Below, piece by piece: positions 39,889-64,000 of a stretch of DNA of 64,000 nucleotides. The notes beneath the pieces were generated by a model. The model saw only the letters and a list, made by a program, of their open reading frames with translations. It was not told the origin of the DNA and searched no databases. Each line of letters starts with the position of its first letter. Positions within the stretch are counted from its first letter, which is position 1. Source of the DNA: an uncultured Prolixibacteraceae bacterium (GTDB lineage: Bacteria > Bacteroidota > Bacteroidia > Bacteroidales > FEN-979); assembly GCA_964525995.1 (NCBI GenBank), contig CAZGIM010000005.1, forward strand, positions 3,811 through 67,810, read 5' to 3'. The position numbers and the translations under genes are program-made.

Positions 39889-41427
39889 ATGAAACTTGTA
39901 AATTGTGCAACGATAATCACACTCACGATCCTGCTCCTGTCGTGTCAGGGCAATCGACTGGAAAACGATGAGGATAAACTCTCGGCTGAAATACTCCTGC
40001 AGGAAAAAGAGGAGGCAGAACGCATTGAACGTGAAAACAGGCTGGCCGATTCACTGAAAAAGCTCCCTCCCGGATTCCGGTTCAGGGAAGATCGTTCGGT
40101 TGATCCCTCCCACCCACCGGTGATCATCGACATTGCCGGAAGTCTTGAAAATATAAAAGATTTCGCACTTTCGGACGTGGCTTCCAAAATCACCTATATC
40201 CGGATGGAAAAGCTCCCCGATTCCTCCTTCGCCACAGTAATGAAGTTCAGATATTACCTGATGGATTCGAATATCGTGGCGGTTAATCCATCGGGAATCA
40301 TCCTCTTTTCACGAAACGGGAAATACAAGTGTACTGTGGTGAAGAATGAAACCACCGGTATTGAAGTAAGCGCCAACCGAATGACGGTTATGGGCAACAG
40401 CACCTTTGTCGGCGGCGGTACCACCATTTGGTCGGCCGGTAACAACCTGTTCTACAAATACCGGAATTCGCTCACGGGTCAGTCGTATATCATGGAATAT
40501 GATTGTTCGCAACCTCCGGTGAGTCTTTCCATGGGATTTGACCCGGAAAAGCCTGACAAGATCAGGGGGATGGGCCGGATTGCCATCGATCTCAACCACG
40601 GGAAAAGAGTGGCTCCTCAAAAAGGTAATGTCAACGGTATGTGGTCCTCAGGAACTGACTTTATGTACCAGCAGCTGAGTTCCATGATGCTTGATCGAAA
40701 CACCTATGTCCGGCAATTGTCCAGTCCATTCGATATGAACGGTAAATACTCCCTGGGGATCTTCGGTCAACAGGGTGATACCCTGGCGACTTTTACCCAG
40801 TTTGAAAAGGTGGACCGCTTTTCAAAAACGGTTATGCGGGGTACGGATCAAGGCGTCCAGTATGAAAATAAAGGAAGGTACTACATACGTAATGCATTTA
40901 ACGACACCGTTTTCCTGGTGTTACCTCCCAACCGGCTGTTACCGGTATATGTACTGAGGCTTGGCAAATACAAGCTGCTGAAAAAAGAAGGAGTGGATCC
41001 TGATTTCAACCTGAGTGGCAAAATAATCCCTGAAACCTGGGCCGATACCAGAAATTTCATATTTCTGACTTTCTCTAAAGACAGTTACAACTGTCCGAAT
41101 ACCCGAGAAAGCAAGCAACTGAAACAATACTATGCGCTCTTCTCCAAATCGACCCGTAAGCTCTACCTTGTGAAGGGCGATCCGTATAACTATGACCCTG
41201 ATATTCTGAAAAATAATCTGGATGGCGGGATGTCTGTTTGGCCATCCTCCTGGATGGTGGGCAACCACGGCGAGATACTGATCTCATTGAAGGGAAAAGA
41301 GCTGAAAGAACACGAAAATTCTGCCACGTTCAGCGCCTCAACTGCCCCGGCGGCAAAAAAGAAAGAGTTGCTTAAATTGATCCAATCATTACGCGATGAT
41401 GAAGACATCCTGATGGTTGTCGAATAA
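39889..41427 (+). CDS. Lipoprotein with 6-bladed beta-propeller (DUF4934/DUF5128-like)
   Basis: Lipobox LLLSC, LSDVASKITYIRME and NNLDGGMSVWP, typical of Bacteroidales BF3164-like lipoproteins. Confidence 0.7.
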   Translation: MKLVNCATIITLTILLLSCQGNRLENDEDKLSAEILLQEKEEAERIERENRLADSLKKLPPGFRFREDRSVDPSHPPVIIDIAGSLENIKDFALSDVASKITYIRMEKLPDSSFATVMKFRYYLMDSNIVAVNPSGIILFSRNGKYKCTVVKNETTGIEVSANRMTVMGNSTFVGGGTTIWSAGNNLFYKYRNSLTGQSYIMEYDCSQPPVSLSMGFDPEKPDKIRGMGRIAIDLNHGKRVAPQKGNVNGMWSSGTDFMYQQLSSMMLDRNTYVRQLSSPFDMNGKYSLGIFGQQGDTLATFTQFEKVDRFSKTVMRGTDQGVQYENKGRYYIRNAFNDTVFLVLPPNRLLPVYVLRLGKYKLLKKEGVDPDFNLSGKIIPETWADTRNFIFLTFSKDSYNCPNTRESKQLKQYYALFSKSTRKLYLVKGDPYNYDPDILKNNLDGGMSVWPSSWMVGNHGEILISLKGKELKEHENSATFSASTAPAAKKKELLKLIQSLRDDEDILMVVE

Positions 41428-41438
41428 TTACAAAGCCA

Positions 41439-43835: not shown

Positions 43836-43858
43836 ATGATTCCATAACCATCGCTGAC

Positions 43859-46171: not shown

Positions 46172-46242
46172 AATCACTCAATACTGATAATGTGATAGCA
46201 TCAATATGATTGGTAACGAAGCTGATAAAAACATAATTAAAC

Positions 46243-48597: not shown

Positions 48598-48637
48598 ATT
48601 CTGATGGTCATCTATCTTCACTTGATTGACCAAGGCC

Positions 48638-48899
48638 ATGAAACTGACGAAAACAGATACCGCAAAATTCCGGAAAATCTGCATTGCAGTGTGATTGGTG
48701 GTTCTTTGCCCGCTGCAGGAGCGCTTGGATTATTATAAAGTGCAAACCGTCAATCCGGTTGGGCAACAAGAGGTAAAAGCCTGACAGCGGGAGTGTTCAG
48801 ATCGCTTTTTCAAAGATTCAATAGACTGAGGTTTATGTAAAGGCCAGGGGGCGGACCCATGCGCTATGGCTCGTTCCGGGAACCGGCAGACCTGTGCTT
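48638..48899 (+). pseudogene. Decayed paralog of the 30278-30850 lipoprotein gene
   Basis: Colinear nucleotide similarity (MKLTKTDTAKFRKI vs MKPTKTGTVTFRKI), TGA at 48692, an internal deletion at 48775-48782 and TAG at 48822. Confidence 0.85.
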
Positions 48900-49311
48900 A
48901 TGATCCGTTTATCGCACATGGTGAGCGTTACTTCATTTTTTTTGTGTATCCGATCAGGGGACCGGTACCCATCTCGCTGGGTTCTTCACCGGTAAAAACG
49001 GCCATGGTTGATGTAAAAGACCCGGAAGGTAAAATGTTAATGAGAAAACATTCGGGAAAGAGACCGGAATCAACCCGGCAAACAGACCCAAAGGAAATTA
49101 CTTCACTGATCTGATGGTTGAACATCAGAAAATAATCAGAAAAATATCCGTCGAAGGAAAATATAGTCCATCAACCTGCAAAAGGACTGTTATGCCATTT
49201 TTTCGTGCGTCATTTGCGCCGTAATTCAGGATGTAATCTTCTTCAGCAATTACAATTAACGATAAAGAAAAATTATGATGAAAAAACTATGAAATTAAAA
49301 ACTATTAACGA

Positions 49312-50280
49312 ATGAAATCAATTGTATATATGAAATACGGACCTCCTGAAGTTCTTCTTCCGAAAGAGGTTGAAAAACCCATTCCCGCGAACCATGAAGT
49401 TCTCGTAAAGATTATGGCCACAACCGTTACCGCCGCCGATTGCATGATGCGCAGGGGCGATACCGTTTTAAGCAGGATATTCCTGGGATTCAGAAAACCG
49501 CGGAAAAAATATCAAATCCCCGGAACCGAGTTCTCAGGCGTTGTTGAATCGGTTGGTCAAAAAGTCAGCAAGTTCAAACCCGGCGATGAGGTGTATGGTT
49601 TCAGAGGCTTTGGAACCGGTTGCTATGCCTCGTACAAATGTATACATGAAAATGATTCGCTGGCCCTGAAGCCGCGTAACATGGATTTTCGCGAAGCCGC
49701 ATCCATCGTTGACGGTGCATCAACGGCGTTGTTTTTCCTGAAAGAAAAAGCCGGTATCCAGAAAGGGCAGAAAGTCTTGATAAATGGAGCATCCGGCAGC
49801 ATCGGTACATTTGCCGTTCAATTAGCAAGCTATTTCGGCGCTGAGGTGACAGGCGTTTGCAGTACCAGGAACATGGAGCTGGTTAAACTGTTGGGGGCCG
49901 AAAGAGTCATGGATTATACCGAATACGATTTTACCGAAGCCGTCAATACCTACGATATCATCTTCGACACCGTGGGAAAAAGTTCCTTTACCCATTGCAG
50001 GAAAGCGCTTAAACCCGGTGGCAAATACCTGGTGACGGTCATGACATTTAGGCACGTTCTGCTGTCGTTGCTAACCCGGATCGGGAAGGGGAAGAAGGTG
50101 ATCTTTTCCATGTCGGTTAACAAGACCGATGCATTAAATTTTATCCGGACCATGGTTGAAGCCGGAAACCTGGTAACTATTATCGATAAGGAATATTCCC
50201 TTGAAGAAATACAGGAAGCCCACGCCTATGTTGAAAAAGGTCATAAAACGGGAAGCGTGGTGATTACCGTCAACAATTAA
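49312..50280 (+). CDS. NAD(P)-dependent MDR-family oxidoreductase (zinc-independent, RTN4IP1-like)
   Basis: YGPPEVL, PGTEFSGVV, VLINGASGSIGTFAVQLA and HKTGSVVI. Confidence 0.9.
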   Translation: MKSIVYMKYGPPEVLLPKEVEKPIPANHEVLVKIMATTVTAADCMMRRGDTVLSRIFLGFRKPRKKYQIPGTEFSGVVESVGQKVSKFKPGDEVYGFRGFGTGCYASYKCIHENDSLALKPRNMDFREAASIVDGASTALFFLKEKAGIQKGQKVLINGASGSIGTFAVQLASYFGAEVTGVCSTRNMELVKLLGAERVMDYTEYDFTEAVNTYDIIFDTVGKSSFTHCRKALKPGGKYLVTVMTFRHVLLSLLTRIGKGKKVIFSMSVNKTDALNFIRTMVEAGNLVTIIDKEYSLEEIQEAHAYVEKGHKTGSVVITVNN

Positions 50281-50287
50281 CCGGGAT

Positions 50288-51409
50288 ATGAAAAACCTGA
50301 TTTTTTTTATTCTTTTCCTTTTTATCTCGACGGTGATTTTCGGGCAGGTGACAAAAACGACAGATCAGGATTTATTGAATCATTATCCCCTTCCGATGGT
50401 GGATAAGCGTGTTGAACTCCTGAGTATCGTCTTTCGCCTGGCAGGGAATTTTGAATACAACGATGACGCTTACCGGAGCTATGCTTCAGATATCCACAAC
50501 CACTTCGACAAGTACAAAGGTCATCCCCTTATTGTCTTTGCCAAAGAAATGAGTGATAAAAACGGGGTCGGTTTTGATGCCGTACAGGCGATGGCAATTT
50601 ACTTGAAACAGCCACCTTTGTTGGATCCACTGATTCCATTTTCCTCAAAAATCCCGGAACGAAGATGGGGACAGGACAATGCCGGTAAATTCGTAGCGCT
50701 GTTGAAACAGTTCTACATTGATGCCCGATGCGATGCCTTCTTCACGGAACACGAAACCCTGTATCAAACCGCGCAGGAAAGAATCATACCGGTTTACAAA
50801 GCCCTGGATCTAAACTGGTACCATCAATTTTATGGCACAGTGACGGATGGCAGCCTGAACATCATCGCCGGATTGGGGCTTGGAGGAGGCAATTATGGTC
50901 CAAAAGCCGTATTTCCTGATGGGTCCGAAGCCATTTATGCCATCATGGGAACATGGTCGATCGATAGCGCCAATATGCCTGTTTATCCGGTGGATCACTA
51001 CCTGCCCACCCTTATCCATGAATTTAACCATTCCTGGGTAAATCCCCTGACAAAAAAATATGAAAAGGAATTTGAAGATGGTGGGAAAAAACTCTTCGAC
51101 CTTATGAAAGAAGGCATGGGGAATCAGCATTATAACAGCTGGCAGACCATGATGAATGAATCGCTGGTAAGGGCCTCGGTAATCCGTTACCTGTTGAAGC
51201 ACCACCCCGACGGTAAAGCAGCCAAAGGACAACTGATCTCTGACTTCGGCAGGGGATTCTTCTGGATGAAAGGTCTTGTTGAAGCTTTAGGGTTCTATGA
51301 GAAAAACAGGGAAAAGTATCCGACACTCGAGAGTTACGTCCCGGTTCTGGTTGATTTTTACAACAGGGTGGCCATTGAAAGTGTAACGATGTTTGATATA
51401 ACAAAATAA
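50288..51409 (+). CDS. DUF4932 domain protein (secreted; HExxH, possible metallopeptidase)
   Basis: VDKRVELLSIVFRLAG, GNYGP, LIHEFNHSWVN and NESLVRA. Confidence 0.8.
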   Translation: MKNLIFFILFLFISTVIFGQVTKTTDQDLLNHYPLPMVDKRVELLSIVFRLAGNFEYNDDAYRSYASDIHNHFDKYKGHPLIVFAKEMSDKNGVGFDAVQAMAIYLKQPPLLDPLIPFSSKIPERRWGQDNAGKFVALLKQFYIDARCDAFFTEHETLYQTAQERIIPVYKALDLNWYHQFYGTVTDGSLNIIAGLGLGGGNYGPKAVFPDGSEAIYAIMGTWSIDSANMPVYPVDHYLPTLIHEFNHSWVNPLTKKYEKEFEDGGKKLFDLMKEGMGNQHYNSWQTMMNESLVRASVIRYLLKHHPDGKAAKGQLISDFGRGFFWMKGLVEALGFYEKNREKYPTLESYVPVLVDFYNRVAIESVTMFDITK

Positions 51410-51495
51410 GCAAGACAAATGAAATCAAGAACCATTCGACGAAACCTATAAATTGTACGATCAATAAAAAAGGAGTTTCCATGAAAAAGTACCGG

Positions 51496-52887
51496 TCAGC
51501 GCCACTCGAAGAGCAATACGGGCGGTATCAGCAGCAGGCAACCCATGATCAGGAAAATCAAAGAGAGCGGGAGCATGAAACGAATCCATTTGTCGTAGGG
51601 GATGTTGCCGATAGCCAGGATTCCCATGGTGACCCCGCTGGTGGGGAAGATATTTGTGAAAAGCCCGTCGCCTAACTGGTAAGCCAGAACAGCCGTCTGC
51701 CTTGTGATCCCGATCAGGTCGCTAAGTGGCGACATGAGGGGCATGGTAAGCGCGGCCTGTCCCGACCCCGATGGAACAAAGAAGTTCATGACGCCCTGAA
51801 ACAGGAACATAAACTGAACGGAGACCACCTTAGGGAATTGATCCATGGAGCCGGCAATACCGGCCAGGATAGTGTCGATGATTTTGCCGTCGGTTGCCAC
51901 GATCAGCATTCCGCGGGTAAGCCCGATCACCATAGCAGCCGTCATCATATCACGGGCGCCCTCAAGAAATGCTCCTACGGCTGCGTTGGCCTTCAACCCT
52001 GAAAAAATGGCTGCCAGTAACCCCATGGCGATGAACAGTCCTGCGATTTCATTGATGTACCAGTCCCAGATATTTACTCCGACGATCAGCATGACGATGG
52101 ATCCGAAGAAAATGGCCAGGACCAATTTTCTTTTCAAGGTGAAGGCAAGGTCTTCGGCCGAATGGTAAGCTGTCAGATCCCGCTTCCGGTCGATCTCATA
52201 AACAAGACTTTTTTCCGGATTCTTTTCAATCCGGCGCGCATACCACATCACGAAGGCAATGGCAGTGGCCATCAGGATCACCCACACCACAAGCCTGTAT
52301 TCCCAGCCGCTGAAGACGGGGATCTCAGCAATACCCTGGGCGATGCCGATGGTAAAGGGATTGCTGAACGCGCCGGCAAATCCCGAGGCTGCGCCAATGA
52401 ACGGTATGGCAATGCCGGTAAGTGAATCGTACCCCATGGCTATGGCCAGCGGAATGGTGATGAGAATAAATACCATAACCTCCTCACACATACCGAATGA
52501 TGCTCCGGCTAAAGAAAAGAGGAACATGATGATCGGGATGATGAATTTCTTGATGGCCGGGTTCTTCCGGGTCATCTCCAGTATTCCCGACAAGCCGGCG
52601 TTGATCGCACCGGTCTTATTGACGATCCCGAAGGCGCCTCCGATCAGGAGAACAAAGGCAATGATCTGGGCTGCCGAGATCATACCCCGGATGGGAGCGG
52701 TAAAGAGTTCCATCATCCCCTGCGGGCTGGGGTCAACATGATGGTAAGTGCCGGGAACCACCACTTGTCGACCGTTAAGATCATGGCGCTGAAATTCACC
52801 GGCCGGGATGATCCAGGTCAATAAGAGAAAAATAATAAGGATGACCGATACAATGATCAGGGTGTGTGGGATCTTCTTTTTTTCCAT
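51496..52887 (-). CDS. YfcC-family (DcuC/ArcD-like) inner membrane transporter
   Basis: PHTLII, IIPAGEF, NPFTIGIAQGIAE, VPSGSGQAALTMPL and AYQLGDG. Start MEKKK (52887). Confidence 0.9.
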   Translation of the reverse strand: MEKKKIPHTLIIVSVILIIFLLLTWIIPAGEFQRHDLNGRQVVVPGTYHHVDPSPQGMMELFTAPIRGMISAAQIIAFVLLIGGAFGIVNKTGAINAGLSGILEMTRKNPAIKKFIIPIIMFLFSLAGASFGMCEEVMVFILITIPLAIAMGYDSLTGIAIPFIGAASGFAGAFSNPFTIGIAQGIAEIPVFSGWEYRLVVWVILMATAIAFVMWYARRIEKNPEKSLVYEIDRKRDLTAYHSAEDLAFTLKRKLVLAIFFGSIVMLIVGVNIWDWYINEIAGLFIAMGLLAAIFSGLKANAAVGAFLEGARDMMTAAMVIGLTRGMLIVATDGKIIDTILAGIAGSMDQFPKVVSVQFMFLFQGVMNFFVPSGSGQAALTMPLMSPLSDLIGITRQTAVLAYQLGDGLFTNIFPTSGVTMGILAIGNIPYDKWIRFMLPLSLIFLIMGCLLLIPPVLLFEWR

Positions 52888-53003
52888 CGGGATAACAGAT
52901 AAAACGGACAGGATTTCGATTCTGTACAAAATTATTCCATATTTCCAATTTTAAAACAAATCAATATTATCCTTATTGAAATATTTATTTTGATGGTATT
53001 CAT

Positions 53004-53011
53004 TATATTTG
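53004..53011 (+). promoter_or_regulatory. -7 element TATATTTG
   Basis: Exact TAnnTTTG 34 nt upstream of ATG 53045. Confidence 0.55.
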
Positions 53012-53044
53012 CAATAATTGATGTCAAACTAAAATTTTAAACCC

Positions 53045-54142
53045 ATGAAAAGATTTTTACTTGTCGTAGCAGTTCTGCTGCTGCTTGTGTCAAATTCCTT
53101 CTCCCAGGCGGAATTCAGTACTGGCGCACTGAAGATTGGAATCAATGAATATGGCGCCATTGAACTATTCACCGCGGATGAGGTTTACCAAATTGATCGC
53201 GCCTCCATCCTGGTAGCCAGCGGTCCCGATGCCGTTTTTGATTATAAGAATGATGCGAATGAGGACGAACCTACCGTTCTGGTTGCCAATCCTACGCAAA
53301 GCGACTTCGAAATCTACGGAGCTTACAACAATACCTATTCTGGCGATCCTCCCGATGTGATCGTTAAACTGCACGCTTATGGCTGGAACGACGGGGGATA
53401 TGTCATTCTAAAGTTCATCATCAAGAACAACGAAACAGCCGCCATGAATGCCATGGCAGGTCTCGATATCATTCCTTATATTAATGAGATTTATGGATAC
53501 GATACCGTCACGTACAACAACACCGAAGGAGTGGTTAGGCTTCACCGAGGGAATCAAACTAATGTAGGCCTGAAACTGCTTTCGACCACACTCGGATCAC
53601 TCTACTCTTTTGAATGGTATGACGAATATTATGTTGACACAAGTTACTATAACTGGATGAATTATGGTTCTCTTCAACCCCAGTATGTCTCGAATACCGG
53701 CGACGGTCCTGTTATCATCACCGCACAAGCCCCGGTAGCCCTCAATGCAGGTGAATCATTCAACGTTTATTATGCCATGGCCCTTGGGGAGAACGAACAG
53801 GCCATGCTGAATAATATTGCTGTTGCAGAGGATAAATACCAAACGCTGATTACTGCAGTTGATGAAAAGGGAATTGCCGCACAGGGACTGCAACTTGACC
53901 AGAACCAGCCCAATCCCTTCCGGCAAACCACGGCTATCCGTTACACACTTCCCGAAAGTGGCAAGGTCAGTCTGAAAGTTTACAATGTGTTTGGAAACGA
54001 AGTAGCCACCCTCATCGATGGAATTCAGGCCAAGGGTAGCCATAGCGTGAACTATAGCGGGAATGATCTTCCCGCCGGCGTTTACTACTACACCCTCAGG
54101 GTGAACGGCGAAGCGAAGACTGGTAAGATGATTGTACGATGA
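53045..54142 (+). CDS. T9SS type A secreted protein of unknown function
   Basis: Signal peptide ending SFS-Q, acidic Tyr-rich beta domain and C-terminal QNQPNPF...LPAGVYYY...KMIVR. Confidence 0.85.
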   Translation: MKRFLLVVAVLLLLVSNSFSQAEFSTGALKIGINEYGAIELFTADEVYQIDRASILVASGPDAVFDYKNDANEDEPTVLVANPTQSDFEIYGAYNNTYSGDPPDVIVKLHAYGWNDGGYVILKFIIKNNETAAMNAMAGLDIIPYINEIYGYDTVTYNNTEGVVRLHRGNQTNVGLKLLSTTLGSLYSFEWYDEYYVDTSYYNWMNYGSLQPQYVSNTGDGPVIITAQAPVALNAGESFNVYYAMALGENEQAMLNNIAVAEDKYQTLITAVDEKGIAAQGLQLDQNQPNPFRQTTAIRYTLPESGKVSLKVYNVFGNEVATLIDGIQAKGSHSVNYSGNDLPAGVYYYTLRVNGEAKTGKMIVR

Positions 54143-54152
54143 AGATTCTGAT

Positions 54153-54186
54153 AAAAAAAAGGCGGCCAAATGCCGCCTTTTTTTTT
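54153..54186. terminator. Bidirectional intrinsic terminator between convergent genes
   Basis: A8-GGCGGC-caaat-GCCGCC-T9. Confidence 0.9.
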
Positions 54187-54199
54187 ATCTCTTCTTTCA

Positions 54200-55399
54200 T
54201 CAAAGCTTGATCCACACCACAGTCATTGCATGCGGACTAACCCCGGTGATCCAGTCTTCGGGATTGGAGCCGTCGAGGTTGGCGCGGATGATCTTACCAT
54301 CAGGATCCGAATTAGAGATCTTGTAACCCCAGAACAGTTTATTCCGCTGGTAATCGATGGTGATTCCCCAGGTTGCTTTCGACCCATAATCGCCAATCTT
54401 TGTGAGGGCGGAACCATCAAAATTACACATGAAGATGCCATCATCGGGCGCTACGGTGCCTTCTGAACCATAGAGAACCAGGTATGCTTTTGCATTTTTG
54501 AAGTCCATCTCGAGGGCGGTGCCATCCACATCGGGAATGATCTCCGTCATACCGGAACCATCGAAATTTGTTACCCAGAATCCTCCGCTGTAATCGGTCT
54601 TGTCGTTGACCAGGTATATTTTATTAGTGGCGGGATCATATTGTATGTCGATGGGATATTCGGGCGGATTACCCGTGGTATTGATATGAACCTCTGGATT
54701 GGTTCCGTCGAGGTTGCATTTGTAAATCCCTCCGGTACGTCCCCAGTAAAGTTTATCTCCCAGCACAAACATACCCTGCGCGTCGCCCACGATCTCCTGT
54801 CCGGGAACGCTGGCATCCAGAATTTTTTCCGGTAATTTTCCATCAGGGCTGAAACGGTAAATGATCTGGTTGGAATAATCGGAAATATAGACTTTCTTGT
54901 GTGCCGTATCGACAGCGATACCATACGGCCGATCCATATCCAGCGGAACGAAATCCTGCACCAGGGGAGCTGCCTCATCCAGGATCACCATGTGCCCGTT
55001 CCCCGGCGTTCCCCGTGAGGTGAAATAGAGCACCTGGGTCAACCCCGCATTCGGATCCTTTACATTGATCACCATGGTCTTGACCAGTTGGTTATAATAA
55101 ACCGGATTCACAGCTGTACAGGTCAGTTTTACATTGTAAAGTCCGGGAGTTGCATAGCTGGTCGAAGGATTGGCTTCCGTAGAGGTTTGACCGTTCCCGA
55201 AATCCCAGAGATAGCTCTTTGCATTCAGCGAAAGATTGGTGAATGTAACATCGCAGGGAGCATACCCTTCGTTGGTGACGGTATAATCGAAGTTGGCTAT
55301 GGTACTGGCCAGGGGAGTCCCCATGTCCTTCTCCTTGCATCCGGCGACGGTTATCATGACCATCATGATCACGGCCGAGAATATAATATTGATTTTCAT
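54200..55399 (-). CDS. SusE-positioned lipoprotein: PKD domain + YWTD/LDL-receptor-like propeller (DUF5050-like)
   Basis: Lipobox VAGC-KEKD, YLWDFGNG...YATPGLYNV (PKD), and PYGIAVD..KKVYISD / WGITID..RNKLFW blades. Confidence 0.8.
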   Translation of the reverse strand: MKINIIFSAVIMMVMITVAGCKEKDMGTPLASTIANFDYTVTNEGYAPCDVTFTNLSLNAKSYLWDFGNGQTSTEANPSTSYATPGLYNVKLTCTAVNPVYYNQLVKTMVINVKDPNAGLTQVLYFTSRGTPGNGHMVILDEAAPLVQDFVPLDMDRPYGIAVDTAHKKVYISDYSNQIIYRFSPDGKLPEKILDASVPGQEIVGDAQGMFVLGDKLYWGRTGGIYKCNLDGTNPEVHINTTGNPPEYPIDIQYDPATNKIYLVNDKTDYSGGFWVTNFDGSGMTEIIPDVDGTALEMDFKNAKAYLVLYGSEGTVAPDDGIFMCNFDGSALTKIGDYGSKATWGITIDYQRNKLFWGYKISNSDPDGKIIRANLDGSNPEDWITGVSPHAMTVVWIKL

Positions 55400-55429
55400 A
55401 TTTTTCAGGTTTGTCTGTTAGCAAATTGA

Positions 55430-56764
55430 TCAATAACCGGGATTTTGTGTCATCAGCGTATTGGTCTGAAGTTCACTGAGCGGAATCGGAAATAGCGTAT
55501 ATTTCTCGTCGATCCCCAGCACGGAGGCAGCCCTCTTTGTCCTGACAAGGTCGCTCCAACGCTGTCCTTCGAAGGCGAACTCATGACGCCGCTCATTTTC
55601 GATAGCGAGTTTCAGCTCGGGAATACTGGCAGCAGTGGTCGGATCGAGACCGGCACGAAGCCTGATAGTGTTGATATCGGCCCGGATGGCTTCAGTGTCC
55701 CCGTTTGTGTAGGCCAGCGCTTCCGCCCTGATCAGGTACATCTCCGCTAATCGCAATACGAACACACGGTCGGCGCCCGACACAATGTCGCGGTATTTGA
55801 ACGCGTAAGGCAGGTAATTCTCATCAAAGGCAACCGATGAAGCGAAGCGTACCGTGTCGGTAGTCTGGAAGCTTTGAACAAATGCCGCCGGCGGGGATAC
55901 CTCGTAACGGCCGGTCAGGCTGACAGGGAAAAAGTACTGTGCCAGCCGGTTATAGTTCTGGGCATCGAAAATGACCTCGAAAATCGCTTCGGTGGCATTC
56001 CCAGTGAAAAGTTCGGCATATGCCGGCGCCAGCACAAACCCTCCCAGGTTGATCACATTTTCGGCTTTGGCGATGGCTAATTTGGCGATGGCTGGATCGT
56101 TAGTCGCCTGGAACTGGGTCAGGTAAACCCTGGCGAGCAACGCCGACGCACTGAAAGAGCTAGCCCAGCCGGCGGTGCGTGTGGCAGGGAGAATGTTCTC
56201 GGCATTCAGCAGGTCGTTTATAATCTGGGAATTGACTTGTGAAACACTGCTCCGTGCCTGGTTGATGGAGGAAAGGTCGGAAGTTGGTTTAGTCTTGACA
56301 GGAATTCCTCCAAAATAGTTAAGAAGGTTGAAATGCGACAGGGCTCTCAGAAACAGCGCATCGCCGGTAAACATATTCCTTTCTTCCGTAGTCATCTCAA
56401 TACCGCCGATACGATCGAGAACATTGTTGACCCTGTTGATGCAATCGTAGTTGGAGGCCCAGATCCCGTCAATAATGGCATTATCGGCAGCGATCTGGTT
56501 GTCGGCGATCTGCTGATAATCGCGGGTCGTACCGGTCCATGCCAGGTTATCGGCAGCCAGGTCATCGGCAATGACCCGGTTGCGACCGTAGTTACCGACA
56601 TCATGAAGTGAATAATAAGCCCCTGTGATGGCTTTTTCAACGCCGGCCTTATCCTTAATGGCCTGGTCGGCCGAAATCGACTGTGCAGGCTCCACTTCCA
56701 GCATCTTGGTGCAGGATACTGTGGTCAACCCCAGAATGATCAGAAAATATATGATATTTTTCAT
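55430..56764 (-). CDS. susD: RagB/SusD family nutrient-uptake lipoprotein
   Basis: Lipobox TVSC, ALFLRAL.HFNL, RLAEMYLIRAEA, ERRHEFAFEGQRW.DL.R and FPIP..E. Confidence 0.95.
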   Translation of the reverse strand: MKNIIYFLIILGLTTVSCTKMLEVEPAQSISADQAIKDKAGVEKAITGAYYSLHDVGNYGRNRVIADDLAADNLAWTGTTRDYQQIADNQIAADNAIIDGIWASNYDCINRVNNVLDRIGGIEMTTEERNMFTGDALFLRALSHFNLLNYFGGIPVKTKPTSDLSSINQARSSVSQVNSQIINDLLNAENILPATRTAGWASSFSASALLARVYLTQFQATNDPAIAKLAIAKAENVINLGGFVLAPAYAELFTGNATEAIFEVIFDAQNYNRLAQYFFPVSLTGRYEVSPPAAFVQSFQTTDTVRFASSVAFDENYLPYAFKYRDIVSGADRVFVLRLAEMYLIRAEALAYTNGDTEAIRADINTIRLRAGLDPTTAASIPELKLAIENERRHEFAFEGQRWSDLVRTKRAASVLGIDEKYTLFPIPLSELQTNTLMTQNPGY

Positions 56765-56782
56765 CGCTTTTATCTGTTTAAG

Positions 56783-59692
56783 TTAAAACATTAGGTTTAA
56801 ACCGATCATAAAGGTCCTGGACTGCGGATAGGTGAAGAAGTCGGTACCGATAATGATGTTGCTCGAACCGCCGTAGTAATTCACCTCAGGGTCCATCCCG
56901 GTATAATTCGTGAAGGTGAAAAGGTTCTGGACCGTGGCATATAGTTTTGCCGATTTCATCCCGATCTTCTTGATCCAGTCTTTTCTGAAATTGTAGCTAA
57001 GAGTTACATTTTTTATGCGAAGAAATGATCCGTCCTCGATAAATCTCGATGATTTATAAGTGTCGCCCACCCTTGGGAACTGGGTGATGTCGCCGGGTTT
57101 TTTCCATCGGTCGATCATTCGTTTGGTCTGGTTGTCTTCGCCCGATCCCGACTCTAAATAGATCAGGGTTCCATTGAAAACATCGTTCCCGTAAACACCC
57201 TGTAGGAAAATGGACAGCTCGAAATTCTGGTAACTGAAGACATTGGTGAATCCCGCGGTGAAATCAGGATTCGGATCGCCGGTCTTGACCCGGTCGGCCG
57301 AAGTGATGGTTCCATCGCCATCCATGTCCTCATAAACAAGGTTACCGGTTGTAGGATCAACCCCAAGGCAATTCAATCCGTAGAAAATACCGATCGGCTG
57401 GCCCACTTCGACCCGGTTGCCACCCCTGCCCATGTCGTCAATGGGCTGATCCTGGTAAAGACTTAGAACTTTATTCTTGTTCGTGGCGAAGGTGAGGGCT
57501 GAGGTCCAGGTGAACTTCTTGTCAATATTTACCGTATTCAGCACCACCTCAAGTCCCTTGTTTTCCAACTGGCCGATGTTTGACGAGATGCTGTAAAATC
57601 CCGAAGAAGATGGGATCGGCCTTTCAAGCAACAGGTCTTTCGTATGGTTGTAATAAACATCGAAATTCAGATTGACCCGGCTCCGGAACATCGAAATATC
57701 GAACCCTATACCAGTCTGCGCGGTGGTCTCCCATTTAAGATCCGGATTGGGAAGCTGCGTAGGTGCGATCCCCGAAGCGCCCCCGTAATTATAACCTGCA
57801 CCATAGAGACCTAAGGAAGCAAAATCGCCGATCCCGTCATTTCCAGTCAGTCCGTAACTGGCGCGGAGTTTCAGCTCATTGATCCATTTGACCGGTTTCA
57901 GGAACGATTCCTCCGACATCCGCCAGGCAAATGAACCGGCCGGAAAATAACCGTAATGGTTATTTTTACCAAATTTGGATGAACCGTCGGCACGGGCAGT
58001 CAGTGTAAAAATATACCGGTATTTGAAGTTGTATTTGAACTGGCCAAAGTACGAATTCAGCACCCGGTCGAGTGCAGAAGCGGATGCTGCACGTATGGTA
58101 CCGGCTGAAGCAATATATTGAAGTTCATCGTTCGGGAAATTGATCCCCTCAATATAGGTCGCACGGTTTGAATATTTCTCGAAACTGTGCCCGATCAGCA
58201 CATCAATGTTATGCTTTTCCTTAAATTCCCTGATGTACTGCAACACATTGTTGGTAGTGATGTTGCTGGCGTAATTGGTCCCTTCGATCCCCAGGCCGTT
58301 ATACTTCTTTCCCTGGCGGGTGGTGGTGGGGTCGTAGCTGTGTTCCCGGAGGCCGTATACATCCACTCCAAATTTGGAAGTAAAGGTAAATCCATCAAGA
58401 AATTTATACTCGAGATAGGCATTTCCATTGGTACGGTTCGTATAGGCCATGTTGATCGAATTTTTCGCGATAGCCACCGGATTGGCATAAAAAGCGCTTT
58501 CATCGTATTCGCCGTTGGCATCATAAACCGGGTAGATGGCCGGAATGGACATGGCATTGGGCAATGGACCGTTCAGGGTTCCATCGCCTTCAATGCGGGC
58601 ATTTTTTGCATAGATGATGCCGACACCACCGCCGATAGTCAGGTTGGGAAGGATCTTGTAATCGGCATTCAGTCTTCCGCTATATCGTTGATAAGAGGTT
58701 CCCAACACCACTCCAGACTGGTCGTAATAGTTTCCGGAGATGAACAGTCTGAATTTATCATTCCCGCTGCTGACTGAAAGTTCGGTATTGGCGGTCGGAG
58801 CAGTGACCAGGATCTCGCTCATCCAGTCGGTATTGATCCCCTGTACACTGGTGCCTTTGTACTCGTTCCATTCGGTGGCATCCATCATCGGTATAATACG
58901 CTCCTTCGGCAGTGTTTGCCATCCATAACTAAGGTTTAGAGACACATCAGTCTTGCCGCGACTACCTTTTTTGGTGGTGATCAGGATGACCCCGTTGGAG
59001 GCCCTGGCCCCATACATCGAAGTTGCCGACGCATCTTTCAGAATGGTCATCGATTCGATATCGTTGGGATTGATATCAGTCATTGCATTCAGCTCCTGCC
59101 CGCTCATCCCGACCTGCGAATACTGGCCGGTAATGGTAGGTATTCCGTCGATCACGATCAACGGCTGATTACTTGCATTGATGGAGCTTCCTCCCCTGAG
59201 TTTGATCATGTTCTGACCTCCGGGCGTCCCCGATTGCGTATTGACAGTCAAGCCAGCGGTCTGTCCTAACAACACTCCATCGATGGTTCGTAGGGGAACG
59301 TTTTTGATCTCCTCTTCATTGACCAGTTCGATGGAGCCGGAAATGAGTTTTTTGCTCGTGGTGCTATAACCGACCACTACGAGTTCACCCAGTGCAATAT
59401 CCTGGTCACTTAGCTTTACATTGATTACTTTGCGCCCCTCCAGCGGGATCTCCTGCGTTTGCATTCCTACAAAGGAATAGACCAGGATGCTCCCCACCGG
59501 CGCAGCGATGGTGTATTTTCCGTTCAGGTCGGAGGTAGTCCCGTGAGTGGTTCCCTTCACCAGGATGGTAACACCTGGGAGGGGTGAGTTGTCATCGGCA
59601 GAGACGATCGTCCCGGTAACATTGATGTCCTGTGCAGCAAGTCGCCCCAGGAACACCCCGAACAACAGCAACAATAGGTAGTGTTTTTTCAT
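56783..59692 (-). CDS. susC: SusC/RagA family TonB-dependent transporter
   Basis: CarboxypepD-like N-domain, PLIVIDG, DINPNDIESMTILKDASAT.MYGARASNGVILITTK, KLRASYG and YPQSRTF.IGLNLMF. Start MKKHY (59692). Confidence 0.96.
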   Translation of the reverse strand: MKKHYLLLLLFGVFLGRLAAQDINVTGTIVSADDNSPLPGVTILVKGTTHGTTSDLNGKYTIAAPVGSILVYSFVGMQTQEIPLEGRKVINVKLSDQDIALGELVVVGYSTTSKKLISGSIELVNEEEIKNVPLRTIDGVLLGQTAGLTVNTQSGTPGGQNMIKLRGGSSINASNQPLIVIDGIPTITGQYSQVGMSGQELNAMTDINPNDIESMTILKDASATSMYGARASNGVILITTKKGSRGKTDVSLNLSYGWQTLPKERIIPMMDATEWNEYKGTSVQGINTDWMSEILVTAPTANTELSVSSGNDKFRLFISGNYYDQSGVVLGTSYQRYSGRLNADYKILPNLTIGGGVGIIYAKNARIEGDGTLNGPLPNAMSIPAIYPVYDANGEYDESAFYANPVAIAKNSINMAYTNRTNGNAYLEYKFLDGFTFTSKFGVDVYGLREHSYDPTTTRQGKKYNGLGIEGTNYASNITTNNVLQYIREFKEKHNIDVLIGHSFEKYSNRATYIEGINFPNDELQYIASAGTIRAASASALDRVLNSYFGQFKYNFKYRYIFTLTARADGSSKFGKNNHYGYFPAGSFAWRMSEESFLKPVKWINELKLRASYGLTGNDGIGDFASLGLYGAGYNYGGASGIAPTQLPNPDLKWETTAQTGIGFDISMFRSRVNLNFDVYYNHTKDLLLERPIPSSSGFYSISSNIGQLENKGLEVVLNTVNIDKKFTWTSALTFATNKNKVLSLYQDQPIDDMGRGGNRVEVGQPIGIFYGLNCLGVDPTTGNLVYEDMDGDGTITSADRVKTGDPNPDFTAGFTNVFSYQNFELSIFLQGVYGNDVFNGTLIYLESGSGEDNQTKRMIDRWKKPGDITQFPRVGDTYKSSRFIEDGSFLRIKNVTLSYNFRKDWIKKIGMKSAKLYATVQNLFTFTNYTGMDPEVNYYGGSSNIIIGTDFFTYPQSRTFMIGLNLMF

Positions 59693-59763
59693 ACGTTCAG
59701 GATTTAGTGAGAATATTAAGTCTGTTTTTACATTGGAGATTTCCAACAGAGGATTTCATGGTT

Positions 59764-61149
59764 TTATTCTATGGTTTCGGCCACTACCCTGACGGGGTCT
59801 ATATCCATGGATATTCCTGTTACCATATACCCGGGAGATGCTCCTTCGATAGCTGAAGAATAACCCTGGAAAGACCCCGACTTCCGGAGGATTAACCTAA
59901 ATCCGGAATTTCCGGAGGTACGCGTAAGAGTGACTATGGAATCATTGCGCTTATTATCGGCCAGGTACCTGGTGTATAATTCACTGAATGATTTGGCAGT
60001 GGGAGCGAGGATCCCCGCTTGATCAACGAACAGATCCTCAAACTGTTCCCTTCCAAGGATGGGACTTTTTCCGGGGGCAGGGATTGCGGTACAGGTCTTA
60101 AAGTCGAAACCGTCACCCTCCTCCAGGTAGCTGATCTGAAGGTTCCGGATCGATGGATGTCCTTTGATGATTTTAATTTCGGCCCGGCCGGCATCGACGA
60201 TGGTGACGCCTCTCGTTCCGGCAACCTTCATCCTGTTTTGTGCGGCATCAAAGATTATTGCCGTATTCTCATCGGTTCCGAAACCCATGATCCTGCTTTC
60301 TTTTTTATCTGCATTCACCGCCTGATCAGCAAGAACAACCGAAAGCCTTCCAATCCTTGCCCGTTGGTTGAAGTGTTGATCGACCACCCCATGCGGAAAA
60401 AAGCCAAGGCCCCTCGTAACAAAAACACCGCTGTCCTCGGGCAAATCCTCCCCGCTGATCCGGGTAATGACTCCACGGGTCAATGCTGCCACGCTAGTAC
60501 CGGCAGCGATCATCACCTCGCTCATGATGGCAGCTCCGGCACTGGTCCCGCCAATCACCCCACCTCGGTTATATACCTCCCATACCGCCTTCAGCACCAG
60601 AGTCTGGCTCCCGTCGGGATTATATAGCGTTCTGACCGTACGCAACTGATCGCCTCCGGTAAACCACACTCCTGAACACCGACCGACAATTTCAGCGAGT
60701 TCAGCGTTGTTCCCGTTGTTCCTCCATTCCGACTCATTAATCCCTGCCGTACTGTCATCATCGATCATCGCAACAGGAATCAGGTGGATATTGGTCGCAT
60801 CAACGCCATACATCAACAACTCGCTCCTGAGCCAGGAATACGATTGCACCGGCGCTCCGCTTGCCGACGGGATCACAGCAAAAACGGCTTTTCCCGGACC
60901 GCCTGCACGATTTATCAGCTCCCTGAAAACGGATTTGTTGCTGGCCTCGAGCCCACCACCCACTATTACGAGGCTTCCTCCGGGCCCGGGTCGGGCTACA
61001 GTTATCGTTCCCGGAGTGGTGTCATTCTTTTCCGCCCCCCCTCCGACAAGCAGGAACCTACCTGCAGGTGAACCAGAGGCGCAGAAGGGTAAAAGAAAGA
61101 GTAGAAAGATAACGCTTTTCAGCGTCGATGAAGGTAGCGACAATTTCAT
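59764..61149 (-). CDS. cphB: Cyanophycinase (peptidase S51), exported
   Basis: FTGGDQ, GTSAG (Ser), VDQHFNQRARIGRL (His plus three Arg in cyanophycinase spacing) and GTDENT (Glu); N-terminal signal peptide. Confidence 0.88.
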   Translation of the reverse strand: MKLSLPSSTLKSVIFLLFLLPFCASGSPAGRFLLVGGGAEKNDTTPGTITVARPGPGGSLVIVGGGLEASNKSVFRELINRAGGPGKAVFAVIPSASGAPVQSYSWLRSELLMYGVDATNIHLIPVAMIDDDSTAGINESEWRNNGNNAELAEIVGRCSGVWFTGGDQLRTVRTLYNPDGSQTLVLKAVWEVYNRGGVIGGTSAGAAIMSEVMIAAGTSVAALTRGVITRISGEDLPEDSGVFVTRGLGFFPHGVVDQHFNQRARIGRLSVVLADQAVNADKKESRIMGFGTDENTAIIFDAAQNRMKVAGTRGVTIVDAGRAEIKIIKGHPSIRNLQISYLEEGDGFDFKTCTAIPAPGKSPILGREQFEDLFVDQAGILAPTAKSFSELYTRYLADNKRNDSIVTLTRTSGNSGFRLILRKSGSFQGYSSAIEGASPGYMVTGISMDIDPVRVVAETIE

Positions 61150-61368
61150 CCTGATAATTCCCCTTATCTGTGTACCGACAGAGACCCTGCGGTTTTATGG
61201 GTTAGTAATTTTCGATTTCAATAGTCACAGGGAATTCCTATAAATTAATATTCACGGTTTGTATGAACATTATGCTTATAGGTATTTCTTTTGCGAATAT
61301 AAAAAATTTACCGAAGGCCTGAAAAGAAATTCCATTTTTCGCAAATTTGTTCAATAAAACCGAAAGAT

Positions 61369-62496
61369 ATGCTGACCCTTTTTAAAAATGCCCAAATCTA
61401 CGCACCGGAACCACTTGGCAAGAAAGATGTCATGACCGGAGGAAAAACAATCCTTGCCGTGAGCGACCGGATCGATCCGCCCCGGGGAGTCGAATGCAAA
61501 ATTGTCGAATGCGAAGGACTCTGGCTGGTTCCCGGCCTGATCGACAGTCACGTTCACATTACTGGTGGTGGTGGCGAAGGAGGACCGGCAAGCAGGATGC
61601 CTGAGCTGTTACCAGAAATGATGATCGAGGGCGGAGTTACCACGGTGATTGGCTGTCTGGGCACCGATGGCATTACCCGGACTGTCGAAAGTGTGCTCAT
61701 GAAGGTAAAAACCTTACGAAGCCTTGGTTTCTCGGCCTGGATGTACACCGGCGCTTACCAGGTGCCAACCCCCACCATCACCGGCGACCTTGCCAGAGAT
61801 ATCACCCTGTTTGAAGAGATCATCGGAGTCGGCGAAGTAGCCATCTCTGACCACCGTTCATCGATTCCATCTTTCAACGAACTGGCCCGGATTACGGCCC
61901 ATGCGCGTGTGGCCGGGATGATCGGAGGGAAAGCCGGGATTGTCAATATGCACATGGGCGATGCAAAGGATCCGTTCAAACCGCTTCATGAGATTGTGGA
62001 AGGCACCATGATGGGCTATAAACAGTTCCTCCCCACCCATTGCAACCGGAATCCTTACATTTTCGAGGATGCAAAGGCGTACGGGAAGAAAGGGTATGTC
62101 GATATTACGACCAGCTCGTACCCTTACGATCCCGATTGCGAGATAAAACCCTCTAAAGCGCTGAAACAGCTGCTGGATGCCGGGGTTCCTGCCGGGCACA
62201 TCACCTTCACCTCCGACGGATGCGGCTCCCTGCCCACCTTCGATAAGGAAGGTAGGCTCGTGCGGATCGACATGGGACTGCCATCCTCCATCCTCCGTGA
62301 GATTAAAGAATCGGTGACCGACGAAAGCATCCCGCTGGAAACAGCCCTGATGGTCGCGACCTCAAACCCGGCCACCATCCTGAAACTGAAAGGAAAAGGG
62401 AACATTACAGCCGAGAACGATGCAGATATCCTGGTATTGGACCATGACTTTGGGATCAGGTACCTGATGGCGATGGGGAAAGGATTGATTGAATGA
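61369..62496 (+). CDS. iadA: Isoaspartyl dipeptidase (beta-aspartyl peptidase, amidohydrolase fold)
   Basis: IDSHVHITGGGGEGG, GCLGTDG, GAYQVP, AISDHRSS, HMGD, PTHCNR and TSDGCGSLP.F. Confidence 0.95.
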   Translation: MLTLFKNAQIYAPEPLGKKDVMTGGKTILAVSDRIDPPRGVECKIVECEGLWLVPGLIDSHVHITGGGGEGGPASRMPELLPEMMIEGGVTTVIGCLGTDGITRTVESVLMKVKTLRSLGFSAWMYTGAYQVPTPTITGDLARDITLFEEIIGVGEVAISDHRSSIPSFNELARITAHARVAGMIGGKAGIVNMHMGDAKDPFKPLHEIVEGTMMGYKQFLPTHCNRNPYIFEDAKAYGKKGYVDITTSSYPYDPDCEIKPSKALKQLLDAGVPAGHITFTSDGCGSLPTFDKEGRLVRIDMGLPSSILREIKESVTDESIPLETALMVATSNPATILKLKGKGNITAENDADILVLDHDFGIRYLMAMGKGLIE

Positions 62497-62552
62497 TAAT
62501 GGACAATTGAAAATGGACAATTGAAAATGGACAATTGAAAATTGAAAACGGA
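62497..62552. repeat. Heptamer tandem array (same family as 36005-36053)
   Basis: taatgga caattga aaatgga caattga aaatgga caattga aaattga aaacgga, starting directly after the iadA stop. Confidence 0.85.
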
Positions 62553-62715
62553 ACATAAAAATCTTCATAATCTGTTCGCTAATCGATGATCCCTTCTATG
62601 TTGAAAAACAACTATTATCTCATTTTTTTCTTTTTATCTTGTTGAAATGTTGATAACTGATTGAAAGGCTGATGTTTTGGAGGTTATCAATATTTCAATA
62701 AGAAATAATCCCTAT

Positions 62716-62865
62716 TTTCTGTATTCTTCTATCAGCAGTCACCCGTTTATTATCTTTTAACAGAGCTGCAAGATCACGTTTAACAAAAAATGAGAGAGCC
62801 GCAATCTAATCAAAGAAGGCAGTCATCCTGTTATGGAGCTGCAGGGATTGGTAGCGGTCTCTCTC
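62716..62865 (-). ncRNA. Candidate bridge RNA/seekRNA of the IS110 element
   Basis: Two consecutive lobes, each with outer stem, large internal loop, GCAG[C]/[UGA]CUGC stem and apical hairpin. Loop strands match the putative junction at 62589-62599. Confidence 0.65.
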
Positions 62866-62914
62866 GAAAAATTAACATATAAATTTAGGGGTTATTTCTG
62901 AGTTTTATATCATT

Positions 62915-63979
62915 CTACTGCAAGATTGTTTCATTCCTTAAACAATAATAGATCTGATTGGCAAGTTTCCGTGCTGTTCGAATCAGGGCAATATTCGGTT
63001 TCATTCGTTTTCGGTAATCTTTATACAGGTTAAGATAGAAAGAATCGGACCTGATCGCTGTCCAGGTCCCTTCCGTGATAAGATACCTTAAATGGGTATT
63101 GGCGCGCTTGGTTATTTTTCCTACATGCACTTTATCACCTGAGCCATGTACTCGCGGAACCAAACCTAAAAATGATCGGTAATTATCCGGACTTTTGAAC
63201 CGATGAATATCTCCGGTTTCCGTCAGAATAGTCATGGCTGTGATCACACCTATGCCGGGTATTTGAATCAATTTTGGATACACCTTATTGTATCTATCAT
63301 GGTTGGCTAACAAGCGTATCTGTTTAGTCATGTTCAAAAGCTCTCCACGAATAAAGGTTAAATACCGAACTCTGCTTCTCATGGCCTCTGTCGCCGATGA
63401 TTCATTCAATTGAATTTCACTTAACCATTTTATAAACCGTGCAGACCAGTGACTCCCTTTTTTGCTGAATATCTCAGGATATTTGATCCCATTTATCTGC
63501 AAAGAAGCTTTAATCCGGTTTTTTATTCTGGTATAGTCCATTGATAATTTCTCTCTTGCTCTAAGCAATTGCCGATCCTCTTCAATACTTATCGGTGGTA
63601 CCCATATGGGTTTCGCCTCTTTGTTTCTCATCGACTTGGCAATCTTCCTGCTGTCACGCGGATCACTCTTGCGTTCCTTATCCTTTTGTGTGGTGGGTAT
63701 ATCGGCTGGATGGATAACCATACAGGAAACTCCCTTAGATTCAAATTCCCGCTGAATGGAATAACCAAAATACCCAGCTTCATATCCAACCAAATAGGTA
63801 CCCCCAGGATAATTTTTATGTAAATGTTTGATCAGGATATCAGGTTCCGGATCCTGTAAAAATGTCTTTAATACCAATTCATCGGTTTGAATCGTCACCG
63901 TCCAGTTCTTTTTGTGAGTATCAATGCCACAATAAAAGTTTTGACCATTGAAATCAATTTGTTTACTTTGTGTCTGCAT
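62915..63979 (-). CDS. IS110 family transposase (DEDD RuvC-like + Tnp domain)
   Basis: CGIDTHK, YEAG, KSDPRDS (DEDD), IPGIG.ITA and GLVP...SG (catalytic Ser). Confidence 0.95.
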   Translation of the reverse strand: MQTQSKQIDFNGQNFYCGIDTHKKNWTVTIQTDELVLKTFLQDPEPDILIKHLHKNYPGGTYLVGYEAGYFGYSIQREFESKGVSCMVIHPADIPTTQKDKERKSDPRDSRKIAKSMRNKEAKPIWVPPISIEEDRQLLRAREKLSMDYTRIKNRIKASLQINGIKYPEIFSKKGSHWSARFIKWLSEIQLNESSATEAMRSRVRYLTFIRGELLNMTKQIRLLANHDRYNKVYPKLIQIPGIGVITAMTILTETGDIHRFKSPDNYRSFLGLVPRVHGSGDKVHVGKITKRANTHLRYLITEGTWTAIRSDSFYLNLYKDYRKRMKPNIALIRTARKLANQIYYCLRNETILQ

Positions 63980-64000
63980 AGGTCTTCGTTTTTAAGGTTA

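Follow-up and report, generated by a model that had tools for sequence, protein, structure and literature searches.

A reduced, PUL-like gene cluster with a probable role in cyanophycin scavenging in an uncultured Bacteroidales-type bacterium

We describe here a gene cluster that occupies positions 51496-62496 of a 64,000-nucleotide stretch of DNA from an uncultured Prolixibacteraceae bacterium (contig CAZGIM010000005.1 of assembly GCA_964525995.1), which was analyzed at its full length and is referred to below as the window. The cluster combines a SusC/SusD outer-membrane pair with an exported cyanophycinase, an isoaspartyl dipeptidase, a permease and two further surface proteins. These genes probably constitute a cyanophycin utilization locus (CUL), built along the lines of a polysaccharide utilization locus (PUL), with which this Bacteroidales-type bacterium scavenges cyanophycin from other cells. 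The gene order is conserved in relatives, which strongly supports the SusCD-based scavenging of exogenous cyanophycin. The CUL concept was already published in 2017, and the window holds a reduced form of such a locus.

The conservation of the locus was assessed by searching one genome per GTDB species with a degenerate pattern and confirming the matches by tblastn, and the best 80 loci were taken. Twenty of these (L001-L019 and L052) are from Bacteroidota, in metagenome-assembled genomes labelled Bacteroidales, Lentimicrobiaceae, Porphyromonadaceae or simply Bacteroidota; the names of the isolates alone suggest that the relatives come from lakes and wastewater. The initial annotation of this DNA, which was made by a model from the letters and a list of open reading frames (ORFs), held that its reading would fail if the susCD genes were not conserved beside the cyanophycinase gene (here cphE). 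What we find is a susC gene directly downstream of cphE in all 20 loci, with a product 63-85% identical to the SusC of the window. The other genes recur wherever the contigs reach far enough. SusD is encoded in 16 of the 20 loci (54-77% identity), a PKD lipoprotein in 15 (56-75%), the isoaspartyl dipeptidase IadA in 16 (66-81%), a protein sorted by the type IX secretion system (T9SS) in 12 (48-63%) and the permease in 8 (up to 90%). The divergence of iadA from the cyanophycinase side, first pointed out for the window, holds in each of the 16 loci that have it, and IadA identity is 66-89% across the syntenic loci overall. The complete order, starting from a divergent iadA and running through an S51-T9SS gene (where present), cphE, susC, susD and the PKD gene to the variably present genes for the T9SS protein and the yfcC-like permease, is represented in 20 species-level genomes and at 5 distinct places in metagenomes. 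One relative (L081) is collinear with window positions 51475-62594 at 96.8% DNA identity. Measured against it, all seven genes of the locus have a ratio of nonsynonymous to synonymous substitution rates (dN/dS) of 0.03-0.28, and the locus is thus maintained by purifying selection.

The named genes and their coordinates were all borne out by the ORF listing and by hidden Markov model (HMM) scans. Four genes run together on the minus strand, namely cphE (59764-61149, 461 aa), susC (56783-59692 from its ATG, 969 aa), susD (55430-56764, 444 aa) and the PKD lipoprotein gene (54200-55399). The iadA gene (61369-62496) lies on the plus strand across a divergent intergenic region of 219 nt (61150-61368). 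At the other end the plus-strand gene for the T9SS protein (53045-54142) converges on the PKD gene and is followed by the minus-strand yfcC-like permease gene (51496-52929, with a possible alternative start at an ATG at 52887). When the longest ORFs are taken, the gaps in the four-gene run are 17, 18 and 30 nt, as originally given, the 18-nt gap being that between the adjacent and co-oriented susC and susD. The longest susC ORF (56783-59746) begins at a TTG at 59746, and gene calls in relatives make the ATG at 59692 (MKKHYLL..., 969 aa) the more likely true start; if that start is taken, the cphE-susC gap becomes 71 nt. The run ends, as had been proposed, at a single terminator. This is a strong bidirectional intrinsic terminator (54153-54185) with a 14-bp stem and an A-run and a T-run on either side, which ends both the four-gene run and the convergent T9SS gene and is 100% conserved in sequence in L081. 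The cphE/iadA intergenic region carries a Bacteroidetes-type -7 element, CAAATTTG, at 61342-61349, 20 nt 5' of the iadA ATG, and more than 20 related loci have a [T/C]AnnTTTG element equally far ahead of their iadA genes; the consensus of the Bacteroidetes -7 element is TAnnTTTG. No RNA family in Rfam matched within the window.

The S51 protein scores above the cut-off of the cyanophycinase equivalog model TIGR02069 (165.5 bits against 126.6) and aligns with the solved structures 7UQV, 3EN0 and 7UQW. It contains the motifs GGDQ (residues 165-168, with Q168), GTSAGA with Ser203 and DENT with Glu294, as well as DQHFNQRARIGRL, which fits the pattern DQHFxxRxRxxR and supplies His259 and R263, R265 and R268. 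These triad and pocket motifs, which had already been recognized in the sequence, align with those of 7UQV and 3EN0, and all their columns, those of the Ser203-His259-Glu294 triad, of GGDQ and of the Arg-rich pocket, are invariant in our homologue alignment (A1). The enzyme had been called CphB. It has a signal peptide, as first noted and as read from the sequence, and a conserved C-terminal extension of ~110 aa that CphB and CphI lack and that gives no Pfam match even at E up to 10; the solved CphB-type PDB chains cover residues 58-352 only. By these features it is assigned to the exported long CphE type and not to the ~270-aa intracellular CphB. The family has 4031 matches at E <=1e-10, with members of ~425 aa, and the long form (aligned to about residue 455-461) occurs also in Fusibacter, Bacillaceae, Rheinheimera, Microbulbifer and alphaproteobacteria. 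The label CphE presumes a likeness to the enzyme of that name from Pseudomonas anguilliseptica, and rests on its length, which we take to be 418 aa. The orthologues of the window enzyme have signal peptidase I-type signals that end in [A/S/G]-Q, and neither a lipobox Cys nor a T9SS C-terminal domain was found in them. In Bacteroidetes a 'Q-rule' applies to such signals. Together these features point to Sec-dependent export and, in Bacteroidota, to the periplasm as the most likely location of CphE. CphE is the fastest-evolving protein of the locus throughout, with identities of 42-70% where those of SusC are 63-90%, and its dN/dS against L081 (0.28) is the top of the seven-gene range. A replacement of cphE in the lineage of the window, considered in view of identities of 42-58% for CphE against 63-85% for SusC, was rejected because the same gap recurs between other loci; cphE is merely the fastest-evolving gene.

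The locus in the window differs from most of its relatives at the 5' end of cphE. In 15 of the 20 Bacteroidota genome loci, and also in the relative L086, the iadA and cphE genes are separated by a gene for a 600-655-aa protein, in which a T9SS sorting domain accompanies an S51 domain of the cyanophycinase-like kind (86 bits with TIGR02069, less than the cut-off requires). The window has no such gene, and only its first ~44 codons are left, joined to cphE as codons 1-44 of the latter (61018-61149, minus strand) and encoding a signal peptide and GRFLLVGGGAEKN. This last sequence matches the N-terminus of the L086 S51-T9SS protein at 13 of 14 residues. A tblastn search with CphE residues 1-55 finds, in 17 loci, the N-termini of the upstream S51-T9SS genes and not cphE, and the window CphE is chimeric in that its normal cphE alignment starts at about residue 56 (56-461). 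Since residues ~1-44 of CphE are the N-terminus of the upstream gene, an in-frame deletion has taken out the surface enzyme and joined the signal peptide of that enzyme to cphE, producing a reduced form of the locus with a recycled signal peptide. Other loci that do not have the S51-T9SS gene, for example L085, have a normal cphE N-terminus, and the gene is therefore missing there without a scar. Decay of the locus was also considered, given the deleted gene and a nearby IS110 element, and was rejected because every gene has a dN/dS below 0.3. In a complete locus the T9SS-displayed S51 enzyme would start depolymerisation outside the cell. With this enzyme deleted, the cell from which the window comes probably has to rely on fragments that are soluble or short, or on neighboring cells that depolymerise the polymer.

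The SusC/RagA-family TonB-dependent transporter (TIGR04056 861 bits, with the SusC signature) starts with a CarboxypepD_reg domain and also has a plug, and no STN domain was found in it. Its closest solved structure is 8AA4 (476 bits), with RagA (6SLI, 342 bits) third-closest. The SusD-family protein is an outer-membrane lipoprotein (Cys18) with SusD-like_3 and SusD_RagB domains, and among solved structures it comes nearest to 9SJE_B. For a SusCD pair, the conservation of the two proteins is unusually high here. Pfam and NCBIfam HMM scans revealed no catalytic domain of a carbohydrate-active enzyme (CAZyme) in the locus, which is thus PUL-like in architecture and not a polysaccharide locus, and no cyanophycin synthetase (cphA) was found among the window ORFs of at least 680 aa; both absences had been reported for the locus at the outset.

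The two other surface proteins are plausible candidates for binding the substrate. The PKD lipoprotein (Pfam PKD_4, Cys21) has 431 homologues, which are 62-85% identical to it and come without exception from uncultured Bacteroidota, and its lipobox Cys21 is invariant. Its AlphaFold2 model (pLDDT 90) places after the PKD domain a six-bladed YWTD (LDL-receptor class B) beta-propeller, which Foldseek matches to the propellers of LRP6, LRP4 and nidogen (root-mean-square deviation ~3 Å over ~285 columns). From this model and from its gene position, which is that of a surface glycan-binding protein (SGBP), the lipoprotein could plausibly act as a surface binding protein. The T9SS protein begins with a signal peptide, which is followed by a beta-supersandwich domain (~22-270) and, at the C-terminus, by a type A sorting domain of the Por_Secre_tail kind (289-365; TIGR04183 / PF18962, 34.7 bits against a cut-off of 23). 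Foldseek relates its AlphaFold2 model (pLDDT 84) to the non-catalytic N-domains of GH94 phosphorylases and GH15 glucoamylase, to YidC P1 and to aldose epimerase, and the predicted fold has no peptidase features. Neither the N-domain of this protein nor the propeller of the PKD protein has a Pfam match at E up to 10. The T9SS gene had been taken for a mere flank of the cluster. It has, however, 321 homologues, all of ~366 aa and all annotated as 'hypothetical', on the same contigs as cphE matches, and with its presence in 12 of the 20 loci it is better regarded as a conserved, locus-specific component, for which a role as a surface binding protein is plausible on the basis of the model. Two further T9SS cargo proteins are encoded at 22085-26457, a choice-of-anchor L protein with type B sorting and an Omp28-like protein with type A sorting, and these show that the organism uses the T9SS.

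The enzymes and permease of the locus have partners well beyond Bacteroidota. IadA scores 429.6 bits against TIGR01975 (cut-off 331), has a dN/dS of 0.06 and, in agreement with the first reading of its sequence, has no signal peptide and is thus cytoplasmic, where it would split beta-Asp-Arg. The permease (Pfam DcuC 378 bits, dN/dS 0.03) reaches 397 bits with the NCBIfam YfcC model; this value, more exactly 396.8 bits, lies under the 500-bit cut-off of the equivalog NF008611, so that the protein is a member of the DcuC/YfcC superfamily and not an equivalog of E. coli YfcC. Among 59 cphE loci from outside Bacteroidota, a yfcC homologue lies within 10 kb in 30, iadA in 19 and both in 17, so that the YfcC link holds across phyla as well. 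Such cphE-yfcC-iadA clusters occur in Firmicutes, Alphaproteobacteria and Gammaproteobacteria without SusCD, and none of the 59 loci has SusC, SusD, the PKD protein or the T9SS protein. This distribution indicates that cphE, yfcC and iadA form an ancient core to which an outer-membrane module was added in Bacteroidota. The clustering of yfcC with cphE across phyla is also the strongest evidence at hand for beta-Asp-Arg as the substrate of the permease, which is a candidate importer of the dipeptide.

Some relatives have additional genes beside iadA. A ~500-aa M14 carboxypeptidase and an OSBS/NSAR-type enolase (TIGR01928, 367 bits) are found there in about 12 loci, often together with an M28 peptidase; examples of such M14/OSBS-type stretches are 4028-8540 of L081, 6076-8720 of L085, 1882-6375 of L086 and 6103-8713 of L087. 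The M14 neighbor was considered as a CphZ-type dipeptidase, and proved to be a PF00246 carboxypeptidase with only a weak AstE_AspA (CphZ-like) match. These genes could form a linked module for the salvage of peptides or D-amino acids.

Taken as a CUL, the locus would operate in five steps. SusD, the PKD/YWTD-propeller lipoprotein and the T9SS beta-supersandwich protein would bind cyanophycin or its soluble fragments at the cell surface, and the TonB-dependent SusC would take in short (beta-Asp-Arg)n fragments. The Sec-exported and likely periplasmic CphE-type cyanophycinase would then cut these fragments to beta-Asp-Arg, the YfcC/DcuC permease would move the dipeptide into the cytoplasm, and IadA would free Asp and Arg. 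The identities of the genes, the catalytic motifs, the synteny, the folds, the purifying selection and the deletion scar come out of the analysis itself, and from these we infer the binding of the substrate, the size of what is imported, where CphE is located and what YfcC carries. The initial annotation had seen in the window a complete scavenging route. The SusCD-based reading has gained support from synteny, but the route is not complete here in the sense of its relatives, most of which have the surface S51 enzyme that the window has lost. More tentatively, and with somewhat greater doubt than confidence, we suggest that SusCD moves oligomers of a non-ribosomal polyamide, that the PKD plus YWTD-propeller lipoprotein and the T9SS supersandwich protein are then new, dedicated families of cyanophycin-binding proteins, and that the reduced form marks a shift from a self-sufficient degrader to a scavenger of fragments made by neighbors.

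Several observations weigh against assigning the locus to cyanophycin scavenging. At neutral pH cyanophycin is for the most part insoluble, and CphB has been described as an exopeptidase that releases dipeptides (PMC10206079). The combination of insolubility and exo-cleavage makes the reduction of the polymer to a size that SusC can import a weak point of the scheme, above all where there is no surface enzyme. The SusC homologue 8AA4 outscores RagA as a match to the SusC of the window, and we take 8AA4 to be a Bacteroides glycan importer; the supersandwich fold predicted for the T9SS protein is most familiar from enzymes that act on carbohydrates. The sequence alone therefore does not indicate a peptide ligand. 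The permease scores below the YfcC equivalog cut-off, as noted above, and no hybrid two-component system (HTCS), SusR or extracytoplasmic function (ECF) sigma/anti-sigma regulator was found between 49312 and 63979. A cphA gene could be located outside the 64-kb window. The literature that we searched contained no biochemical test of the SusCD, PKD-propeller or T9SS-protein families on cyanophycin.

The main rival reading is one of cross-feeding, to which we give a modest chance of being right. On this account SusCD imports only the beta-Asp-Arg dipeptide or very short oligomers that were made extracellularly, whether by the extracellular cyanophycinases of other organisms or, where the locus is full-length, by the T9SS-anchored S51 enzyme of the cell itself, and CphE trims the leftovers. 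It sits well with a window that has no surface enzyme after the S51-T9SS deletion and yet retains a remaining locus under purifying selection. It would also agree with the dipeptide-releasing action of CphB (PMC10206079) and with the argument that many bacteria scavenge dipeptide made by others (PMC9974463). However, a dipeptide of ~290 Da normally needs no SusCD pair, still less two extra surface binding proteins, and the conservation of an exported cyanophycinase that acts after uptake implies that oligomers are present in the periplasm.

A general system for the uptake of peptides or isoaspartyl peptides, similar to RagAB and with S51 and IadA acting on Asp/isoAsp peptides from decaying protein, is improbable. 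RagA is a close solved homologue of the window SusC, the relatives have M14, M28 and OSBS/NSAR-type genes beside iadA, and the IadA enzymes of cyanophycin clusters are promiscuous for isoaspartyl dipeptides (PMC10206079). The S51 family moreover includes peptidase E and enzymes that detoxify microcin C (McC) (PMC9239234). Against this, the S51 protein exceeds the cyanophycinase equivalog cut-off and keeps the DQHFxxRxRxxR pocket that recognises beta-Asp-Arg, and members of its enzyme family are found together with yfcC and iadA in the cyanophycin-scavenging clusters of several phyla. Least credible, and very improbable indeed, is that the locus mobilises cyanophycin which the cell itself makes with a cphA outside the window: our view covers 64 kb of the genome, and all 86 of 86 surveyed Bacteroidota genomes that encode cphA1 also encode a cyanophycinase (PMC10206079), but reserves inside the cell are broken down by CphB or CphI in the cytoplasm, the enzyme here has a signal peptide and shares its transcript with an outer-membrane importer and surface lipoproteins, and the annotated relatives have no cphA within 10 kb.

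The assignment to cyanophycin scavenging has a precedent. The initial annotation knew of no description of a SusCD-based cyanophycin locus, and here it was mistaken, as a "cyanophycin utilization locus" was described in the Bacteroidetes species Salinivirga cyanobacteriivorans by Ben Hania et al. 2017 (Environ Microbiol 19:1134), as cited by Sharon et al. 2023 (PMC10206079), where strain L21-Spi-D4 is named as a carrier of a scavenging cluster. According to PMC6243061, Salinivirga has two cyanophycinases, one of them with a Por secretion domain, which corresponds to the two-S51 form seen in 15 of our 20 loci. Following the definition quoted in PMC10206079, the window is a CUL in that a cyanophycinase, iadA and a transporter are clustered in a Bacteroidetes genome with no cphA nearby. 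It differs from the Salinivirga locus, which we compared by its description only, in having no second cyanophycinase with a Por/T9SS sorting domain, that enzyme having been lost through the deletion-fusion, and in belonging to a different lineage, which is uncultured. The Salinivirga locus was not among the best 80 loci of our scan. The abstract of the 2017 study is said to speak of a conspicuous cyanophycin transport complex homologous to typical PULs of Bacteroidetes. The papers that our literature search returned, in part dominated by work on ordinary PULs, included none that ties SusC or SusD to cyanophycin.

Comparison with other known systems helps to place the locus. Cyanophycin has been proposed as the substrate of a TonB-dependent transporter in Citromicrobium sp. 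JLT1363 on the basis of gene adjacency (Tang et al. 2012, PMC3400609). As in the window, the transporter gene stands beside that for a cyanophycinase, but the transporter is alphaproteobacterial and has neither a SusD partner nor surface lipoproteins. Classical PULs, such as the Sus system of B. thetaiotaomicron and the levan and dextran utilisomes, share with the window a susC/susD pair, after which comes a surface lipoprotein in the SGBP position, and a hydrolase on the same transcript, and the closest solved structures of the window pair, 8AA4 and 9SJE, were both deposited as SusC/SusD homologues. The window departs from these systems in having no CAZyme, no HTCS, SusR or ECF-sigma regulator and no STN domain, and in that its hydrolase is an S51 serine peptidase for which a polyamide substrate is predicted. 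RagAB of Porphyromonas gingivalis (PDB 6SLI) is a SusCD-family pair that serves peptide rather than glycan, which resembles the role predicted here; it imports ribosomal oligopeptides made by gingipains, however, and has no linked dedicated periplasmic peptidase, permease or dipeptidase, in contrast to the complete substrate-specific pathway predicted for the window. Finally, the cphE-iadA-transporter clusters of Firmicutes and Proteobacteria have the same long exported type of cyanophycinase and the same yfcC and iadA partners. They differ in having no SusCD, PKD-propeller or T9SS parts, and their enzyme is released to the medium and not coupled to TonB-dependent import. An extracellular CphE of Pseudomonas anguilliseptica was reportedly described by Obst and colleagues in 2002.

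The surroundings of the locus differ in part from those in L081. Collinearity with L081 ends at 62594, just past iadA, where L081 goes on with M28, OSBS/NSAR-type MR_MLE and M14 genes. The rest of the window (62595-64000) holds an ORF for an IS110-family (RNA-guided) transposase (62915-63979, minus strand; NF033542, 214 bits), and the far end of this element lies beyond the window. On the other side, the 2.85 kb at 48622-51474 are absent from L081, where the flanks are parted by 15 bp; judged from this comparison, the segment is a strain-specific insertion directly beside yfcC. Two proteins are encoded in it, a PIG3-type quinone oxidoreductase (49312-50280) and a DUF4932 protein (50288-51409), the latter with a signal peptide. 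Farther out, four co-directional duplicated permeases of the ADOP/FtsX-MacB type (797, 798, 770 and 784 aa) are encoded at 37428-48597, with a 512-aa ORF without family assignment between the first and the second; genes of the outer-membrane efflux (OEP) and HlyD types come before them, at 34655-37405. The segment 17451-22023 has a G+C content of 0.53-0.545, compared with ~0.45 elsewhere, and encodes an FGGY sugar kinase, a xylose-isomerase-like TIM-barrel protein and a sugar transporter of the major facilitator superfamily. It may be a horizontally acquired pentose module, and a 392-aa opposite-strand ORF (19147-20325) that overlaps the TIM-barrel gene is probably spurious.

Cyanophycin is a major nitrogen store of cyanobacterial blooms and mats, and a route by which heterotrophs capture it therefore shapes the recycling of nitrogen. 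The SusCD-based route was put forward in 2017 on the strength of a genome. The locus considered here is widespread and tightly conserved in uncultured Bacteroidota. To the published concept our analysis adds this spread, together with two uncharacterised families of surface proteins with confident structure models, the YfcC-type permease as a cross-phylum partner, and a natural variant without the surface enzyme that is recognizable by its deletion-fusion scar. The parts of the locus are targets for binding, transport and structural work, and possibly reagents for cyanophycin biotechnology.

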